In this document: positions 9,138 through 61,157 of the stretch, one piece after another
Position numbering within the stretch: the stretch's first letter is position 1
Layout of the letters: each line of letters opens with the position of its first letter
DNA from: Candidatus Terrybacteria bacterium RIFCSPHIGHO2_01_FULL_43_35
Lineage (GTDB): Bacteria; Patescibacteriota; Minisyncoccia; Terrybacterales; GWB1-40-14
Length of the DNA: 64,000 bases
Direction of reading: 5' to 3'
Assembly (NCBI GenBank): GCA_001822815.1
Contig: MHSR01000013.1
Span: 85,093-149,092 of the forward strand
The notes under the pieces: generated by a model
The model's database searches: none
Told to the model about the DNA's origin: nothing
The model's input: only the letters and a program-made list of their open reading frames with translations
Position numbers and translations under genes: made by a program

Positions 9138-9188
9138 ACCCGTACCTACTAAATACCGACTACGCGTGCAGTATTTAGTAGGTACGGG
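9138..9188. promoter_or_regulatory. Perfect roughly 18-bp inverted repeat (CCGTACCTACTAAATAC ... GTATTTAGTAGGTACGG) in the pilB-ruvB intergenic region
   Basis: Read directly from the sequence. Loop CGACTACGCGTGC. No T-run follows, so it may be a terminator, an sRNA or a regulatory stem. Confidence 0.3.
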
Positions 9189-13560: not shown

Positions 13561-13691
13561 CCTCGTTAGAAATTTACGGTAACTTTTCCGGTTAGAAAAG
13601 GTCGCGGCCTTTTCTAACTCCTTCTTGTTTTTTGCAAAGGCCAAAAAGTGTTCGCGGCCAAAATCCTTAATTTCTGTAAATTTCTAACGGG
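13561..13691. repeat. Family-B nested palindromic repeat (CGTTAGAAATTTAC ... GTAAATTTCTAACG outer IR; GTTAGAAAAGG-tcgcgg-CCTTTTCTAAC inner IR)
   Basis: Read from the sequence. It shares the CGTTAGAA/TTCTAACG core with elements at 52146, 53783, 57199 and 59737. Confidence 0.5.
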
Positions 13692-17952: not shown

Positions 17953-19065
17953 TTATAGCTTAATCGGCATCAAAAGATAAAGTTGTTTGTTTTCTTCTTT
18001 TTCTGGTCTTATCATTCCTGGTTTGTTTTCTCCGCACAAGTAAAACGTGATGTTCTCGTCTTTAAAACCTTCTAGTCCGTCAATCAGATATTTTGAATTA
18101 AACACCGCGTTGACGCTTTCTCCTTTTGCGCTTTTGGTTTCTACTTTAGTTTCCAATACCCCTTTGTTTGGATCTTCACTTTTGATTTCTATTGTTTTTG
18201 CTTCGGTTTTAAAGGATAAATGGATATCATTTAAACGACTGGTTAATATATTAGCGGCTCGTACCTGATTTAAAAAAACTTCTCTAGCAACAACGAAAGT
18301 GGTTTTTGTTTCTTGGGGAATTATGTGTTTGTAATTAGGATAATTACCGTCTATAAGCCGTGAAACAAGGCTGGTTTTTCCAGCTCTAATTTCGATGTGG
18401 TTCTTATCCAACAAGAAATTTATTTTACTTTCTTGAACCGCTGAAAAAATTCTTATTATTTCTTGGGCGCATTGAAGGGGTATAATATACTGGCCCTCTT
18501 TCTGCTCCTTATTTATATCAATTTTTCTCTCCCCTAATCTAAACGTGTCCGTCGCCACAAGTGTTAAGTTCCCGTTAGAAAAATCTAAAAAAAGGCCGGA
18601 AATTTCGGGCCTAGATTCAGATACGGCAATAAGTGGCAGTAGAGATTGTAGATTAGACAAAAGAGAGCTTTTCTCTATTTCGTTTTGGTTCTCTTCGTTA
18701 ATTTTCGGAAGAAGTGGAAATTCGTCCCCGTCTTCGTGTTTAATCTTAAAGTTAAGTGCACCGTTTTCTATATACAGAAAAAGGGTCTGTTTTGTTGTGT
18801 AAAGATGTATTGGTTCGTTTGCGAATGTACTGGAAACGTCGCTTAAAATTTTTGCTGGAACGGCTACGCTACCCTTTGTTTTGATTTTTGCTGGAACGAT
18901 AGTAAAAGCCCCTAGTTCAAGATTAGTTGATTGAAAAGATAATCCAGAATCCTCCGTTTTTATTAGTATATTTTGTAAAATTGGTAGAGTAGCGTGTTTA
19001 TTCCAAATACGTTCAACAACACGAAGACCCTCCCTAAAATGTTCCGGTAAACACGTAATATCCAT
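17953..19065 (-). CDS. dnaN: DNA polymerase III beta sliding clamp
   Basis: 370 aa with a three-domain clamp-like pattern, located directly downstream of dnaA. Confidence 0.85.
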   Translation of the reverse strand: MDITCLPEHFREGLRVVERIWNKHATLPILQNILIKTEDSGLSFQSTNLELGAFTIVPAKIKTKGSVAVPAKILSDVSSTFANEPIHLYTTKQTLFLYIENGALNFKIKHEDGDEFPLLPKINEENQNEIEKSSLLSNLQSLLPLIAVSESRPEISGLFLDFSNGNLTLVATDTFRLGERKIDINKEQKEGQYIIPLQCAQEIIRIFSAVQESKINFLLDKNHIEIRAGKTSLVSRLIDGNYPNYKHIIPQETKTTFVVAREVFLNQVRAANILTSRLNDIHLSFKTEAKTIEIKSEDPNKGVLETKVETKSAKGESVNAVFNSKYLIDGLEGFKDENITFYLCGENKPGMIRPEKEENKQLYLLMPIKL

Positions 19066-22863: not shown

Positions 22864-22897
22864 GCCCAGCCCCAATTTTTAAAAAATGGGGCTGGGC
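22864..22897 (+). terminator. Terminator hairpin GCCCAGCCCCA-N-TGGGGCTGGGC
   Basis: Perfect 11-bp stem around an A/T loop. The same stem sequence recurs near 57062 and 57270. Confidence 0.6.
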
Positions 22898-30306: not shown

Positions 30307-30700
30307 TTAGCTAAAATTTCTAATTACTAATTTCTAATTGACCTAAGCAACTCTCAAGATACAAGATACAATAACCAGACAAATCACAATAATCAAAAGT
30401 TCAAATTCCAAAGCTCATCCTTCGACTCTACTCAGGATGACCCTGAACGGAAACGAATGGGTCAAATGACAATTCATGGATTCGACTTCGCTCACCATGA
30501 CCCTGAGTAGAGTCGAACGGGTCAATGCTTAAAATTCAAAGGCTTAAAACCGTTTTTGTGCCTTAGTCATTTAGGCTTGAATTGAAATTTAGATTTTGGC
30601 ATTTGGGTATTGTCTGTATCTTGGGTCTTGGTTATTCGCAACATTTTTGTCATTAGACATAGGGATTTGATTAGAAATTAAGAATTAGAAATTAGACATT
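30307..30700. mobile_element. Family-A MITE-like palindromic element (394 bp) inserted between the two halves of virB4
   Basis: Terminal inverted repeats AAATTTCTAATTACTAATTTCTAATTGACCTAAG (30314-30347) and its reverse complement at 30664-30700. Internal sub-palindromes are present (TCGACTCTACTCAGG / CCTGAGTAGAGTCGA). Related copies lie at 37451, 45858 and 56991. AT-rich, no ORF. Confidence 0.6.
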
Positions 30701-31395: not shown

Positions 31396-31453
31396 TGCAA
31401 CGACGTGCATCCTAAGGAGCGAAGCGACGAGGGACTACCTTAATAAAAAATTC
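31396..31453 (-). repeat. 58-bp leader repeat, copy 1 (upstream of the VirB4-N gene)
   Basis: TGCAACGACGTGCATCCTAAGGAGCGAAGCGACGAGGGACTACCTTAATAAAAAATTC, versus copy 2 at 31926-31983 with 6 mismatches. An adjacent 38-bp hairpin (31368-31405) reaches to 5 nt from the start codon. Confidence 0.6.
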
Positions 31454-31925: not shown

Positions 31926-31983
31926 TGCAACCATGTGCATCCCGAGGAGCGAAGCGACGAGGGACTACCTTAATAAAAAATTC
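31926..31983 (-). repeat. 58-bp leader repeat, copy 2 (upstream of the VirB3-like gene)
   Basis: TGCAACCATGTGCATCCCGAGGAGCGAAGCGACGAGGGACTACCTTAATAAAAAATTC. A CATGGTTGC...GCAACCATG hairpin (31897-31935) includes the start codon. Confidence 0.6.
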
Positions 31984-37450: not shown

Positions 37451-37581
37451 AATTGACCTAATTACTCTAATTGATCTAAACAACGTCTAATGCCAAAATT
37501 TCTAAACGCGCATTTTGGTCATTGGTGCTTGGATATTGGGGCTTGCTTAGGTCAATTAGAAATTAGAATAATTAGAAATTT
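37451..37581. repeat. Family-A short palindromic element (TIRs only)
   Basis: AATTGACCTAATTACTCTAATTGATC ... GCTTAGGTCAATTAGAAATTAGAATAATTAGAAATTT. The right arm is the reverse complement of the left TIR at 30314-30350. Confidence 0.5.
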
Positions 37582-45857: not shown

Positions 45858-46058
45858 AGCATAAATTAAAAAGTAAAATGCTAATTGAAAATTTAAGAAA
45901 CAATTACCAAGAAACAAGATACAGACAATTTCCAATATTCAATAACCAATAATCAACTTTATGTTTGAATTTTGGAATTTGGGTATTGTAATTTGTCTGG
46001 TTATTGTTTCTTGTGTCTTGGTTATTATGACTTTTAATATTTAATTTTTGATCTGCGC
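45858..46058. repeat. Family-A-related palindromic element (inner arms)
   Basis: CAAGAAACAAGATACAGACAA...AATAACCAATAATCAA / TTTGGGTATTGT...TGTCTGGTTATTGTTTCTTG. Shares inner-arm words with 30350-30420 and 30570-30640. Confidence 0.45.
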
Positions 46059-51973: not shown

Positions 51974-53032
51974 ATGATTAACCGCGGCCCCATAAGCGAA
52001 TTAAAAAAACAGTTTCTTGAATATATAGAAGTAGAAAAAGGCCGTTCAGCCAAAACCGTAGAGAATTATGACCATTATTTGGAGCGGTTTTTCACTTGGC
52101 TTGTTGAAAATGTGAAGCCCCGTACCGAACGAAGTTCTGGTACTGGGGTTTCACGTGAAACCCCGTTAGAGGTCTCGCCCGCGCTTGCGCGCCCGCGAGA
52201 GTCTGCGGGGCGGGCCGCCTCTAACGAGGTGGAACCCCCTGTAGAAAAGCCTACTCTTTCAGATCTAACAGAAGAAAAGGTTAGAGCGTTTCGTGTGTGG
52301 CTCAACCGGAAATCGTTATCCAAACAGACACAGAATTATCACGTAATCGCACTGCGCATGTTCCTTAAGTTTCTTGCCCATAAAGGCATTGATGCTTTGT
52401 CCGCGGAACGTTTGGAGCTTGCTAAAACAGGCGCAAGGGAGGTTGATTTTCTTGAAGGTGAGGATTTGGAACGCATGCTTAGTGCGCCAAAAGGCAATGA
52501 TTTGCGCGCGTTGCGCGACCGAGCGATATTAGAAACCCTTTTCTCCACCGGCATGCGTGTTTCAGAGCTATGCGCCTTGGACATAGATCACATCAATATT
52601 GAAAAAGGAGAATTTGCTGTACGCGGGAAGGGCGATAAAATTAGGCCGGTTTTTCTATCGTATCACAGCAGAGAAACAATAAGGGATTACATGAACGCCC
52701 GCGCCGTAATAGTGGAAAAAGCCTTGTTTGTAAGGGTACCTCGTGGTAAGAATTCATTAAATAATGGTAATAATTTTACGCGCTTGACACCAAGATCGGT
52801 TCAGCGGTTGGTTCAACACTACGCGCAAAAAGCCGGCATAGTTGGTAAACACGTAAGCCCGCACACATTAAGACACTCTTTTGCCACCGATCTTTTGAGA
52901 AACGGCGCCGATTTGCGTTCGGTACAAGAAATGTTGGGACATTCTTCCATAACGACTACGCAAATATATACGCACGTCACAAACCCACAGCTAAAAAAAG
53001 TGCACGAAAAGTTCCACAAAGATCCTGAATAG
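51974..53032 (+). CDS. xerC: Tyrosine recombinase XerC/XerD family, with a roughly 40-aa repeat-derived insertion in the N-terminal core-binding domain
   Basis: C-terminal catalytic RHSFATDLLRNGADLRSVQEMLGHSSITTTQIYTHV. The N-domain is interrupted by a GC-rich segment encoding ...GTGVSRETPLEVSPALARPRESAGRAASNEVEPP... Confidence 0.85.
   Translation: MINRGPISELKKQFLEYIEVEKGRSAKTVENYDHYLERFFTWLVENVKPRTERSSGTGVSRETPLEVSPALARPRESAGRAASNEVEPPVEKPTLSDLTEEKVRAFRVWLNRKSLSKQTQNYHVIALRMFLKFLAHKGIDALSAERLELAKTGAREVDFLEGEDLERMLSAPKGNDLRALRDRAILETLFSTGMRVSELCALDIDHINIEKGEFAVRGKGDKIRPVFLSYHSRETIRDYMNARAVIVEKALFVRVPRGKNSLNNGNNFTRLTPRSVQRLVQHYAQKAGIVGKHVSPHTLRHSFATDLLRNGADLRSVQEMLGHSSITTTQIYTHVTNPQLKKVHEKFHKDPE
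52146..52230. repeat. Family-B GC-rich palindromic element inserted in-frame within xerC
   Basis: GGTTTCACGTGAAACCCCGTTAGAGG-(GC-rich core)-CCTCTAACGAGG. The first 45 bp are near-identical to 53783-53827. GC content is sharply higher than in flanking coding DNA. Confidence 0.55.
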
Positions 53033-53107
53033 AACAAGTAATTAAGATGTGTTCTACTAACCCGTAAGCAAAAAATGTTTCACGTGAAACATAAGCACTC
53101 TATATTA

Positions 53108-53718: not shown

Positions 53719-53782
53719 AGCGTTCTCCTTTAAGTTTGAGGAACGATATTCATACTATAGCACATCTCTTACAAAAAAGCAA

Positions 53783-53930
53783 GGTTTCACGTGAAACCCC
53801 GTTAGAAATCTCGCCCGCACTTGCCCCGTTAGAGGCCCTCTTTTGGGAGGCAGTCACCCTTGACGATTTGCCTCTAACGGGGCTTGCGCGCCAGCGAGGA
53901 CCTTTGGGGCAGGCTGTTTCTAACGGAGTG
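53783..53930. repeat. Family-B nested palindromic element
   Basis: GGTTTCACGTGAAACCCCGTTAGAAATCTCGCCCGC ... CCCCGTTAGAGG-36 bp-CCTCTAACGGGG ... TTTCTAACGGAG. The 104-aa ORF called across it (53736-54050) is probably spurious. Confidence 0.5.
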
Positions 53931-54022
53931 AGACCATATCGTTTCCACCTTTCGCTTAATGACTTTACAACAAAATATAAAATGCTATGCTATACAAAAA
54001 TTAAAGAAGGAGGCACCTTAAA

Positions 54023-54271
54023 GTGCCGATGTGGATGTCTGCAGCCGTAAAGGCATTTATCGCCGCCAATGCCGCTGGTGATGAGGAGTTAAAGCGAGAT
54101 ATTCAGGCAGAACGATCTCGCATCGAACAGCAACTACAGATCGCGCAGGGTTATCGAAATACGCTCGAAGTAACGGAGCGTGACCTAGATGAATTTATGA
54201 GAAGGGTTGAATGGGTGATGGAACACCCAAATTGTCTTGGATTTTCAAGCTGGATCAGTCACCAATGGTGA
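54023..54271 (+). CDS. Small hypothetical protein (82 aa)
   Basis: GTG start 9 nt after a strong SD (AAGGAGG). Predicted helical; no recognizable family. Confidence 0.45.
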   Translation: MPMWMSAAVKAFIAANAAGDEELKRDIQAERSRIEQQLQIAQGYRNTLEVTERDLDEFMRRVEWVMEHPNCLGFSSWISHQW

Positions 54272-59178: not shown

Positions 59179-59745
59179 ATGAGCTATGCTTTAATGGGTA
59201 AGAAAGGACAGGTCAAAACGTCATATATGACAAAGAAAATAAGTAAAAAGGAACAGGATTTTATGCGCTCGTATGACGCTCATGCGGACGCGTTATTTCG
59301 GCACTGCTATTTTCGCGTATATGACCGTGAGCGAGCTAAAGAGCTAGTGCAGGAAACATTTATGCGTGCCTGGGAGTATGTGGTCAAAGGGCATAAAGTA
59401 CAAAATCTTCGCGCTTTCCTCTATCGAGTCGCAATAAACCTTATTATTGACGAATCGCGAAAGAATAAACCAGTCTCTTTGGATGAACTAGCTCAAAGTG
59501 GATTTGATGTAGCAAGCGAAGAGTATGAAATGCTGCACACGAAAATAGATGCCTCTAGCGCCGCAGCATTGTTTAAAAACTTGGACGACAAACATCGCGA
59601 GGTTATAATTTTACGTTATTTAGACGGGTTTAAGCCCAAAGAAATAGCCCGGATGCTTAATGAATCTGAAAACGTGGTTTCGGTGCGCCTGCACAGGGCC
59701 ATTAAACAAATTTCAGGCACGTTTACCGCACATGAATCCCGTTAG
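59179..59745 (+). CDS. ECF-type RNA polymerase sigma-70 factor
   Basis: Region 2 (ALFRHCYFRVYDRERAKELVQETFMRAWEY) and region 4 HTH (ILRYLDGFKPKEIARMLNESENVVSVRLHRAIKQI). Confidence 0.8.
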   Translation: MSYALMGKKGQVKTSYMTKKISKKEQDFMRSYDAHADALFRHCYFRVYDRERAKELVQETFMRAWEYVVKGHKVQNLRAFLYRVAINLIIDESRKNKPVSLDELAQSGFDVASEEYEMLHTKIDASSAAALFKNLDDKHREVIILRYLDGFKPKEIARMLNESENVVSVRLHRAIKQISGTFTAHESR

Positions 59746-59940
59746 AAGCCGCGATCGCAAAGGATTAGCAATAAACCCCGTTAGAAAGTTATTTTTGAAA
59801 CTTTTATAGGGAATATTATAATTGATGTGTTTGTGATGCGAGCTTTCTAACGGGGTAAAAATATCTATGTCATATATATAGTATCCATACAAATAATTTT
59901 GCAGATTGAGATCATTGATCGCGATCTGCTTCTAACGGGA
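59737..59940. repeat. Family-B nested palindromic element spanning exactly from the sigma-factor stop codon to the next start codon
   Basis: Outer IR TCCCGTTAGAAGC (59737-59749, containing the TAG stop) and GCTTCTAACGGGA (59928-59940, abutting the ATG). Inner IR CCCCGTTAGAAAG (59777-59789) and CTTTCTAACGGGG (59843-59855). Also GCGATCGC...GATCGCGATC sub-palindromes. Confidence 0.55.
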
Positions 59941-61157
59941 TGAATAACAATCTCCAAAAATTAATAAACGAAGCTAAGCTTTGGGGCTTAACCGTCGAAG
60001 AGCGAAACGGCATTCGCCGAAACCTACTTGCTTTTATGGAGAGCAATCCGCAAGGCGTTCACGGTTTTGGCGCCGAAGCCAGGGTTTCAAACTGGCACGT
60101 CTTATTTACTGCCAAGCCCGTAGCGCTGTTTTTGAGTATTATTTTAATACTGACTGGTAGTACTAGCTTGTCTTTTGCCGCCGAAAACTCTTTACCAGGA
60201 GAAATACTTTATCCAGTCAAGGTAAACATAATCGAAGAAGTACGTTCTGCCCTGGCCTCATCGACTGAAACAAAGGCCAAGTGGGAAAGTGAGCGTATGG
60301 CCGTAAGGCTTGAAGAAGCTGAAGCATTGGCTAACAATGGCCAATTAACCCCCAAGCTCAGAGCAGAGATAGAATATAATTTTGAAAAACACGCTCAGCG
60401 GGTTGATGAGCATGTGGCCAAGCTTGAGGATGAAGGTAACGTTCGGGCCGTAGCCCAGGTTTCATCAAATCTTGAAGTGTCGCTGGAAGTGCACCAAGCT
60501 ATTTTAGAGAACCTTGCCGACCAGGAAAGCGCGGCAGAAGAAATTGATAACGGCGTCATAGGGCAGAGCGAAGAGCTTCTTATCAAAATAGAAGAGAAGA
60601 AAGATTTTGCTTCCTTAGATAGACAGGACAGCGAAGAAAAGGTTTACGAACAACCAACGGACGCCGCTGAAGCTACCGCCCAGGCTGGCTTGCAAGAAGC
60701 CGAGAAGCGAATAGTTCAAGTGCAGGATTTTATATACAATGATAATAAAAGTTCAAAATCCAGCGCAGATTTTTCTTTGATGGAACGCTCGCGAGCCCGT
60801 CTCCTTTCAGCCAAACAAATTTTAGATGACGGTAAGGTTAAGCTGGAGGCCAAAGATTACGCCGAAGCCTTCGTTTTGTTCCAAGCCGCAGACAGGGCAG
60901 CTAGACGAGCCCAATTAATAATGGAGACAAAAAACAATCTTGATATAGAAATTGAGTTGGATGACGATCCAACGGTTTTAGATGAGAATGAATCAAACGC
61001 AAAGACTGAAACCGATAACAACAGTGAAGTAAATGCCGTTGTCGGAGATCCGCCATCTTCGGAAGAGTCCTCAGGGAGCATTTCTAATCAAGACGCCACG
61101 GCGAATAATGAAGATCAACCAGTCGAAGAAGCGTCGCCGGTAATCAGTCTTCCGTAA
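59940..61157 (+). CDS. Single-pass membrane protein downstream of the ECF sigma gene; putative anti-sigma/DUF5667-like partner
   Basis: About 55-aa cytoplasmic N-domain, a TM (VALFLSIILILTG), then a helical extracytoplasmic domain and an acidic tail. Assignment is by genomic context. Confidence 0.4.
   Translation: MNNNLQKLINEAKLWGLTVEERNGIRRNLLAFMESNPQGVHGFGAEARVSNWHVLFTAKPVALFLSIILILTGSTSLSFAAENSLPGEILYPVKVNIIEEVRSALASSTETKAKWESERMAVRLEEAEALANNGQLTPKLRAEIEYNFEKHAQRVDEHVAKLEDEGNVRAVAQVSSNLEVSLEVHQAILENLADQESAAEEIDNGVIGQSEELLIKIEEKKDFASLDRQDSEEKVYEQPTDAAEATAQAGLQEAEKRIVQVQDFIYNDNKSSKSSADFSLMERSRARLLSAKQILDDGKVKLEAKDYAEAFVLFQAADRAARRAQLIMETKNNLDIEIELDDDPTVLDENESNAKTETDNNSEVNAVVGDPPSSEESSGSISNQDATANNEDQPVEEASPVISLP

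Follow-up and report, generated by a model that had tools for sequence, protein, structure and literature searches.

An in-frame hairpin element, probably of MITE-like type, within a putative parS site in the xerC gene of a Candidatus Terrybacteria bacterium

The best-known palindromic insertions that are read in frame are those of Rickettsia and of a small number of families of repetitive extragenic palindromic (REP) sequences. The Rickettsia palindromic elements (RPEs) were described as palindromic insertions lying in frame within genes (Ogata et al. 2000, as summarised in PMC10969869). Moreover, in GTAG- and CGTC-tagged REPs each unit is a stem-loop of 20-40 bp, one end of which carries GTAG or CGTC as an unpaired tag; such REPs are found inside uvrA, uvrB, dnaE and further genes for replication and repair, and their ends provide TAG stop codons (Di Nocera et al. 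2013, PMC3733652). Here, we describe a comparable case in a stretch of 64,000 nucleotides (the window; positions 85,093 to 149,092 of contig MHSR01000013.1, assembly GCA_001822815.1) from Candidatus Terrybacteria bacterium RIFCSPHIGHO2_01_FULL_43_35, a member of the Candidate Phyla Radiation (CPR), also called Patescibacteria. The gene concerned is xerC, which encodes a Xer-family tyrosine recombinase of 352 aa (51974-53032, plus strand; assigned by Pfam and NCBIfam). It hosts a GC-rich segment that is probably an old, partly eroded copy of a hairpin transposable element resembling miniature transposable elements with inverted repeats (MITEs). Its landing site was the right half of a palindrome of the parS type that was already present inside the xerC reading frame, at the connector between the second and the third helix of the N-terminal DNA-binding domain. 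The staggered target G-TGAAA-C was duplicated, and a complete parS core survives on one side.

The xerC product matches the Pfam families Phage_integrase and Phage_int_SAM_1, the latter representing the SAM-like N-terminal domain, as well as the NCBIfam models XerD, XerC and XerA, of which only the XerA-type model passes its cut-off. A protein database search returned an identical 352-aa protein, followed by orthologues of 307-311 aa with 65-69% identity, one of which carries the name Candidatus Terrybacteria. The orthologue loci keep the gene order PNPase-NYN-S15-xerC-NUDIX. The original prediction, which was made from the sequence alone, had proposed that a GC-rich palindromic repeat adds about 40 residues to the N-terminal domain without closing the reading frame. 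These features could be confirmed. The open reading frame (ORF) 51974-53032 continues through the segment over 352 codons, 41 codons are absent from the orthologues, and the GC content amounts to 63% in the extra block (52112-52255) and to 75% in the core element (52161-52229), compared with 44% in the remainder of the gene. A 100-nt sliding window peaks at 66% GC in this region, against a background near 43%. In the alignment, the connector that follows the second N-terminal helix is the only place with extra residues. None of the seven closest orthologues (307-311 aa) has the segment, and a counterpart with normal GC content and no similarity to repeats, which would point to an ancestral linker, was not found among them. 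The view of an insertion in one piece had to be abandoned. The extra DNA comprises 123 nt (144 nt between conserved anchors versus 21 nt in three orthologous DNAs), and the codon-level comparison resolves it into three blocks, which flank the parS palindrome on both sides.

The canonical parS consensus, which we take to be the 16-bp palindrome TGTTNCACGTGAAACA, provides the reference for the landing site. The xerC genes of three relatives (loci L002, L004 and L007) carry the perfect 16-mer TGTTTCACGTGAAACA (AATGTTTCACGTGAAACA) at the codons for VSRET, and none of them contains an insert. In the window, the corresponding site GGTTTCACGTGAAACC (52147-52162; identified from the sequence and the orthologues) likewise encodes VSRET and retains the 14-nt core exactly. 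Judged from these orthologous genes, the VSRET-encoding GTTTCACGTGAAAC is an ancestral parS that has been conserved inside the reading frame and lies outside the inserted DNA. The inserted element proper (52161-52229), which was recognised by its arms, its fold and its homology, is 69 nt long, has the ends CCCCGTTAGAG/CTCTAACGAGG, can be written as C-CCCGTTAGAGG...CCTCTAACGAG-G and encodes (T)PLEVSPALARPRESAGRAASNE. The inverted pair that had been proposed to bound the segment is indeed present, with CCCGTTAGAGG at 52162-52172 and CCTCTAACGAG at 52218-52228, and the DNA of the element folds much better than shuffled sequence (z = -4.2). On either side, the sequence shows a copy of a 5-bp target duplication: the left copy, TGAAA (52156-52160), lies within the right parS half-site, and the right copy, TGGAA (52230-52234), contains one mismatch. 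The same G-TGAAA-C duplication is common to all parS-resident copies of the family described below. No strand is assigned to the palindromic features.

Element and 5-bp duplication together amount to 74 nt and would alone shift the frame by two; the open frame of xerC is therefore composite. The inserted peptide enters in the frame that reads PLE and exits in the frame that reads SN(E), which is consistent with a 67-nt body. To the left of the parS site, a block of 36 nt (52112-52147, plus strand) adds the 12 codons VKPRTERSSGTG, is in frame by itself and is absent from L002, L004 and L007. It consists of GTGAAGC, which is similar to the parS half-site GTGAAAC, and of a 29-nt hairpin CCCGTACC...GGTACTGGG (52119-52147). 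To the right of the element, codon accounting reveals CCCCTGTAGAAAAG (52236-52249, plus strand), a solitary, degenerate left-end-like fragment that differs from CCCCGTTAGAAAAG at 2 positions when compared by eye. Along with the following CCTACT, this fragment stands in for 7 ancestral nucleotides, and the net gain of 13 nt restores the reading frame. To reach the in-frame state, at least one further event at the regenerated target would have been needed. The ends of the 29-nt hairpin match those of an intergenic hairpin at 9139-9188, which has an 18-bp stem (CCCGTACCTACTAAATAC...GTATTTAGTAGGTACGGG), and both hairpins may belong to a second small hairpin family.

A structural model obtained with AlphaFold using the orthologue alignment contains confident helices at residues 26-47 and 100-112. 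Between them, residues 49-89 have a predicted local distance difference test (pLDDT) score below 50 and no secondary structure, and the alignment to the archaeal XerA structure 4a8e covers the flanks of the inserted segment but not the segment itself. The model thus places the insert in a disordered connector. The 41 inserted residues are predicted to form a disordered loop at a position where the fold would tolerate the addition. Furthermore, R195, K219/K222, H297, R300, H323 and Y332 are located in invariant columns of the orthologue alignment A1, and we assume that these are the catalytic residues of the family. Because the insert is predicted to be a disordered loop and the catalytic residues are all intact, the recombinase is probably still functional. 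The identical gene was recovered from 22 contigs of JGI, ENA and Logan assemblies, whose loci are 100% identical to the window, and the insert appears to be fixed in a clonal population. In the xerC gene of the relative P0012 (L006, 300-390), a 33-residue insert is found at the same position, directly after the degenerate parS GTTTTACGTGGAAC; the connector is therefore a recurrent insertion point. The P0012 insert has an unrelated sequence and was rejected as a member of the hairpin family.

The xerC-internal palindrome is accompanied by two others. A perfect and unoccupied 16-mer TGTTTCACGTGAAACA is located just 3' of the xerC stop codon (53076-53091), and GGTTTCACGTGAAACC, again with an exact 14-nt core, is located upstream of the NUDIX gene (53783-53798), where it served as the target of a sister copy. 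The window therefore contains three 14-nt cores (starts 52148, 53077 and 53784), compared with 0.28 expected. The three sites span 1.7 kb at a turn of the GC skew from negative to positive, where gene orientation changes from mostly minus to mostly plus, and this suggests that the region is origin-proximal. Genes for dnaA, parA or parB were not identified in the window, and its DnaA-box matches do not cluster near the parS sites. By their sequence, the three palindromes are putative parS-type centromere sites. In the relatives, the xerC-internal site is empty in three of three cases (L002, L004 and L007). The site upstream of the NUDIX gene is empty in L004, which has the perfect 16-mer, and is filled in L002 by an unrelated, AT-rich member of 125 nt, whose ends and half-site duplication are nevertheless the same.

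In the window, two of the six parS half-sites are occupied, versus none of 123 other GTNNNAC heptamers (Fisher p = 0.002). The chance that at least two of six insertions hit parS is 6e-6, or 6e-4 if one tenth of the sites were tolerated. Moreover, the half-site G-TGAAA-C is similar to favoured targets of the family such as G-TGAA-C. An insertion at parS is probably harmless because the duplication rebuilds a complete core, and this would aid survival in a genome with little neutral space. A mobile element that persists inside a functional DNA site by regenerating this site would be a neat case, and a parS conserved inside the xerC reading frame is a curiosity by itself.

The sister element in the intergenic parS (53797-53928) is 132 nt long, including 63 nt that are made up of a nested copy and one duplication copy, and it is flanked by TGAAA (53792-53796) and TGAGA (53929-53933). 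The nested family member (53824-53882; fold z = -7.5) has a length of 59 nt and a perfect 4-bp CTTG/CTTG duplication. Subtracting it together with one CTTG leaves 69 nt, which align without gaps to the xerC copy, 1.6 kb away, with 54/69 (78%) identity. The stem differences between the two copies are compensatory (GG/CC versus AA/TT). The original prediction had regarded the first 45 bp of the xerC segment as a repeat of 53783-53827. This holds for 42 nt (52147-52188 versus 53783-53824), which match at 93% (39/42 over parS and left end), but the first 14-16 nt of them, GGTTTCACGTGAAACC, are ancestral parS, since the orthologues have TGTTTCACGTGAAACA at this place. The observation that the intergenic copy is stop-free in one frame was correct, as ORF 53736-54050 yields ...SRETPLEISPALA... 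What had been overlooked is the ancestral parS as a target, the target-site duplications and the composite nature of the in-frame state.

Another family member (59737-59940, or 59733-59944 with its flanks) separates a gene for an extracytoplasmic function (ECF) sigma factor from a DUF5667 gene, whose product is possibly an anti-sigma factor. It is bordered by a TGAA duplication and contains a nested member with duplicated TAAA (59776-59855). The CCCGTTAG of the outer element gives the sigma factor gene its TAG stop (...HESR-stop), and the terminal A together with the duplicated TG rebuilds the ATG of the downstream gene. Both genes probably once overlapped (ATGAATAA). The start-codon layout ATGAAT-element-ATGAA is also seen in L031, L070 and L123. 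An older and degenerate member, CTCGTTAGAAATTT...AAATTTCTAACGGG (13562-13691), lies between convergent genes and contains a nested mini-hairpin (13588-13621). A relaxed census of the window yielded nine arm pairs corresponding to six elements and no more. This greatly exceeds the chance level, as ten Markov shuffles of the window gave no arm pair in eight cases and 1 and 3 in the other two. A solitary CCCGTTAGAAA at 18571, which is located inside a 370-aa ORF and has no partner, was treated as chance. In the Rfam scan of the whole window at gathering thresholds, only four tRNAs were detected and no family for the hairpins.

The family extends far beyond the window. A scan with the 19-nt junction of parS and element, restricted to one genome per species, identified 10 loci (11 junctions) in Nomurabacteria, Saccharibacteria, Parcubacteria, Omnitrophota, Ratteibacteria and one gammaproteobacterial metagenome-assembled genome (MAG). 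Although the scan demanded neither a pairing partner end nor a repeated half-site, in all 10 loci with the right end present (L015 is cut off) the partner end pairs at 12/12 positions and is followed by an exact GTGAAAC repeat. The elements at these loci are 41-153 nt long and have unrelated interiors. In L009, parS and element are situated immediately upstream of parA-parB, and in L014 between mnmG/gidA and parA-parB; these are therefore probably genuine centromere sites. In three Nomurabacteria and one Saccharibacteria MAG (L010, L011, L016 and L018), the unit of parS, element and half-site is found upstream of a conserved gene whose product begins with MPKVFTSE. The interior of this element holds a second near-parS (e.g. 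GTTTCACGAGAAAC), and a third degenerate palindrome, ATGTTTCTTATGAAACA, follows, resulting in a parS-like array around one element.

An unbiased metagenome scan that required only the two ends and an element length of 41-71 nt revealed at least 135 elements at at least 120 loci; the counts out of 135 or 134 given from here on are among the matches listed. None of the 135 elements is located at parS, and their 706 kb contain no parS core at all. The ends of the family can be described as C-CCCGTTAGAR...YTCTAACGGG-G (CCCCGTTAGA). The outer bases are C-CCCG...CGGG-G in 105/134 and T...A in 21/134 cases, and a perfect 4-bp direct repeat of the form TNNA or CNNG flanks 88/134 elements, compared with 13 expected when the flanks are re-paired at random. 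The closing stem comprises at least 12 bp, positions 10-12 pair in 19-20 of 20 sequences, and compensatory changes occur. Alignment of the interiors with MAFFT failed beyond the closing stem, and each sequence was instead folded and compared with its shuffles. GC-rich subfamilies have one to three internal stem-loops and fold better than shuffled sequences, whereas AT-rich members show neither. The copies seen are 41-204 nt long and contain no gene. Identical 59-nt copies occur with different flanks in L022, L025 and L041, which indicates recent activity. Moreover, tandem copies have the duplicated bases in common, and nested copies are frequent in the metagenome loci. In the tandem arrays of L119 (12-117) and L060 (2307-2380), neighbouring copies share 6 bp at their junction (...CGGG-GCTTGC-CCCG...). 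Identical copies that also agree in their flanks are spaced about 1-1.2 kb apart in L066 and L128, pointing to segmental duplications that include the element. Elements with the same ends are also present in six IMG/VR viral contigs (L139-L144), and viruses are a possible route by which the family has spread between phyla.

The ends of the elements are compatible with translation. At each end, two of the three frames are stop-free: CCC GTT AGA is read as PVR and C CCG TTA GA as PLE, while the third frame holds TAG or TAA. At the opposite end, the PVR frame exits as SNG and the PLE frame as LTG. Among the matches listed, element length is a multiple of three in 87/135 cases (64%, p = 3e-13), and this bias is also seen outside long open frames (67/114). 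Stop-free frames are enriched in these elements over composition-matched shuffles (z = 3.9). With read-through defined as a frame that has no stop within the element or over 60 codons or more to its left and right, 21/135 elements (16%) are read through in frame. Nine read-through cases were checked against Pfam, and four of them lie inside one continuous domain match, namely in DNA_topoisoIV of GyrA, in MurG, in the PolyA_pol head domain of a CCA-adding enzyme and in MoCF_biosynth of CinA. The other five are located within UvrA, trigger factor, ComEC and two PMT_2 glycosyltransferases. Several flanking ORFs end with ...PR and use the TAG of the element as stop codon. The resemblance to in-frame RPEs, as originally predicted for xerC, is thus supported by the insert-free orthologues, by the 69-nt gapless homology to the sister copy and by the 21/135 read-throughs among the matches listed. 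With 15-45 residues added to GyrA, UvrA, MurG, XerC and other essential proteins, the elements bear on annotation, alignment and structure prediction in CPR bacteria.

We favour the explanation that the xerC segment descends from a MITE-like element that would move by a transposase-type staggered cut. In the gene-dense genomes of CPR bacteria, copies would persist only where they are harmless, which may be the case near stop or start codons or parS half-sites that are rebuilt by the duplication, inside other copies and in surface loops that are entered in frame. At xerC, the target regenerated by each insertion could have been used repeatedly, deletion may have followed, and selection would have retained an in-frame survivor. 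Several observations weigh against this explanation. No empty-site allele exists within the species, as all 22 contigs are effectively identical, and among insert-free relatives even the closest shares only about 69% identity. Translation through the insert is presumed from the open frame and the conservation of the gene. The left 36-nt block has no duplication and is a poor fit to a simple insertion. Furthermore, the parS-resident copies show a constant 5-bp duplication (TGAAA) versus 4 bp elsewhere, and 5 bp were seen only once in 134 cases among the matches listed. Likewise, no pairs of orphan ends 0.6-3.5 kb apart, as expected for an autonomous element, were found in about 0.9 Mb of fetched DNA. 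No transposase is encoded between paired copies in the fetched loci, whose genes specify pilins, toxin-antitoxin pairs, regulators and other ordinary proteins. Because neither an autonomous element nor a transposase was found in about 0.9 Mb, we can only infer the mobilising enzyme and its chemistry.

How the xerC copy arrived could also be explained without a new transposition. Ectopic recombination or gene conversion, with parS as an anchor, could conceivably have copied it from the neighbouring locus of parS plus element, or in the opposite direction. Both copies are the only members of the GC-rich subfamily in the window, they are 1.6 kb apart, measure 69 nt, share the unusual 5-bp flank and agree at 39/42 positions over parS and left end. 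However, their overall identity is only 78%, the stems differ in a compensatory manner (GG/CC versus AA/TT) and the right-side homology is at most 7 bp. Moreover, the identical layout of parS, element and half-site is seen in other phyla with at least five elements (41-153 nt) that are clearly unrelated. Repeated de novo insertion is therefore favoured, and conversion is distinctly unlikely. The hairpins at parS might instead be a selected part of the centromere, or a regulatory RNA or terminator, with the xerC copy as a by-product. The layout does recur in several phyla, twice immediately upstream of parAB, one arrangement is conserved over several Nomurabacteria and Saccharibacteria genomes, and the stems are maintained by compensatory change. 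We consider such a function very unlikely, as none of the 135 members among the matches listed is located at parS, the interiors at parS have unrelated sequences and lengths between 41 and 153 nt, and no Rfam family matches. In addition, the orthologous parS sites of the relatives are free of hairpins and, as we read their sequences, presumably working, whereas nesting, tandem arrays, coding insertions and duplications are traits of selfish DNA.

A REP- or REPIN-type repeat that is moved as a single-stranded hairpin by a REP-associated tyrosine transposase (RAYT), an IS200/IS605-like Y1 enzyme, is an unlikely alternative in spite of several shared traits. The elements are hairpins, many interiors consist of two GC-rich stem-loops like inverted REP dimers, the end contains GTTAG, which is similar to the GTAG tag, and no insertion sequence partner was found in about 0.9 Mb. 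However, the family shows clear target-site duplications (88/134 among the matches listed), and to our knowledge these are not part of IS200/IS605 or REP mobility. GTTAG is paired in the stem and not an unpaired tag, the conserved unit CCCGTTAGAAAT is not self-complementary, AT-rich members lack internal stem-loops, and no transposase gene is bracketed by paired elements in the fetched loci. The provision of TAG stops and the presence of copies in replication and repair genes such as uvrA are in line with REPs, whereas target duplication goes unmentioned in the REP survey (PMC3733652). It is extremely unlikely that the xerC segment represents an ancestral linker specific to the lineage or arose as an artefact of assembly. 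The connector between helix 2 and helix 3 does vary in length among Xer proteins, as illustrated by the unrelated 33-residue insert of P0012, but the segment is missing from the orthologues, shows homology to dispersed repeats and contains 63% GC versus 44% in the remainder of the gene, and the identical sequence has been assembled independently 22 times. Two further candidates were rejected. A folded integron attC site has the inverse core RYYYAAC at its 5' side and the core GTTRRRY at its 3' side, whereas the heptamers present here have the reversed order on both strands (GTTAGAA first, TTCTAAC last). An intein or another self-splicing insert was dismissed by inspection, without a dedicated motif search, as 41 residues are too short and homologous to non-coding repeats.

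The window contains further repeats. Intergenic regions at 30327-30636, 37516-37566 and 45902-46026 hold AT-rich repeats of about 55 nt, TTGGAATTTGGGTATTGT...CTTGGTTATT, which are found both as direct and as inverted copies and have no relation to the CCCGTTAGA family. A 58-nt direct repeat (31396-31453 and 31926-31983; TGCAAC...GAGCGAAGCGACGAGGGACTACCTTAATAAAAAATTC) with 93% identity adjoins two adjacent minus-strand ORFs. Four 22-mers similar to GCCCAGCCCCAATTTTTAAAAA lie at 22864, 57060, 57263 and 57376, three of them being clustered near the tRNA-Pro gene. In the Terrybacteria relative L002 (6590-6930), the 5' end of a tRNA, GCGCCCATAGCTCAAC, is repeated twice more upstream of the tRNA gene. 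In each of these repeats, a GC-rich hairpin, TCCGACG...CGTCGGAG, interrupts the sequence after the D-arm, and truncation follows. They look like hairpin insertions into tRNA gene fragments.

A more far-reaching idea is speculative and, in our view, rather doubtful. The copies could represent a cross-phylum, coding-compatible lineage whose near-invariant 10-12-nt ends are read by a conserved, possibly host-encoded enzyme; parS half-sites would be preferred as safe landing pads, and an occupied parS might alter ParB loading or the local DNA structure. If this were true, a selfish element would be tied to chromosome segregation in ultra-small bacteria. Irrespective of this idea, the findings extend in-frame palindromic behaviour to CPR/Patescibacteria, Omnitrophota and other uncultivated lineages with tiny, gene-dense genomes. 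Moreover, the clean signals, i.e. exact ends, duplications, three-fold length bias and identical dispersed copies, could help to find the mobilising enzyme, for which RPE-type elements offer no known example.

In the open-access text searched, we found neither the end sequence in a relevant context nor reports on MITEs in CPR bacteria or on mobile elements in parS. Compared with REPs, the family shares hairpins that abut genes, the supply of TAG stops and copies wholly inside ORFs (GyrA, UvrA and XerC), and REP dimers with structured spacers resemble its Y-shaped interiors. However, a REP unit is a tagged stem-loop for which no duplication is reported, whereas the family consists of two inverted ends that pair with each other, has GTTAG in the stem and is usually flanked by duplications. 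It thus departs from REPs in two defining respects, the tagged stem-loop unit and the lack of target duplication. With MITEs such as Correia/NEMIS, ERIC, RUP and Nezha (PMC10969869), it has in common the small size, the non-coding nature, terminal inverted repeats, target duplication, dispersal, nesting, tandem copies and occasional in-frame fusions. Those families usually have a parent insertion sequence and stay within one genus or family, whereas no parent of the present family was found in about 0.9 Mb of fetched DNA and its 10-nt ends do not differ between phyla. In the open-access literature searched, classical MITEs are described neither with a three-fold length bias nor with a use of parS half-sites. 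As far as the summary of RPEs in PMC10969869 goes, both groups are short and palindromic, lack a known transposase and occur in intergenic regions as well as in frame in unrelated housekeeping genes, where the peptide is tolerated. On the same basis, RPEs measure about 100-150 bp and are restricted to one genus, whereas copies of the present family measure 41-153 nt (the unbiased scan being limited to 41-71 nt) and occur in CPR/Patescibacteria, Omnitrophota, Ratteibacteria, one gammaproteobacterial MAG and viral contigs. Sharp inverted ends of 10-12 nt and clear 4-bp TNNA duplications further distinguish the family from RPEs. The relation to RPEs is therefore best regarded as an analogy in behaviour and not as membership. 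The target itself matches what we presume to be the canonical 16-bp parS, is clustered and has the same sequence as sites upstream of parAB in other genomes; it differs in that one site is conserved inside the xerC frame of relatives and that two of three sites have been invaded by a mobile element. Thus, the family can be described as MITE-like and comparable to RPEs, i.e. as a new and apparently undescribed family of a familiar type, whose less expected features are a conserved intragenic parS as landing site and identical ends across phyla.

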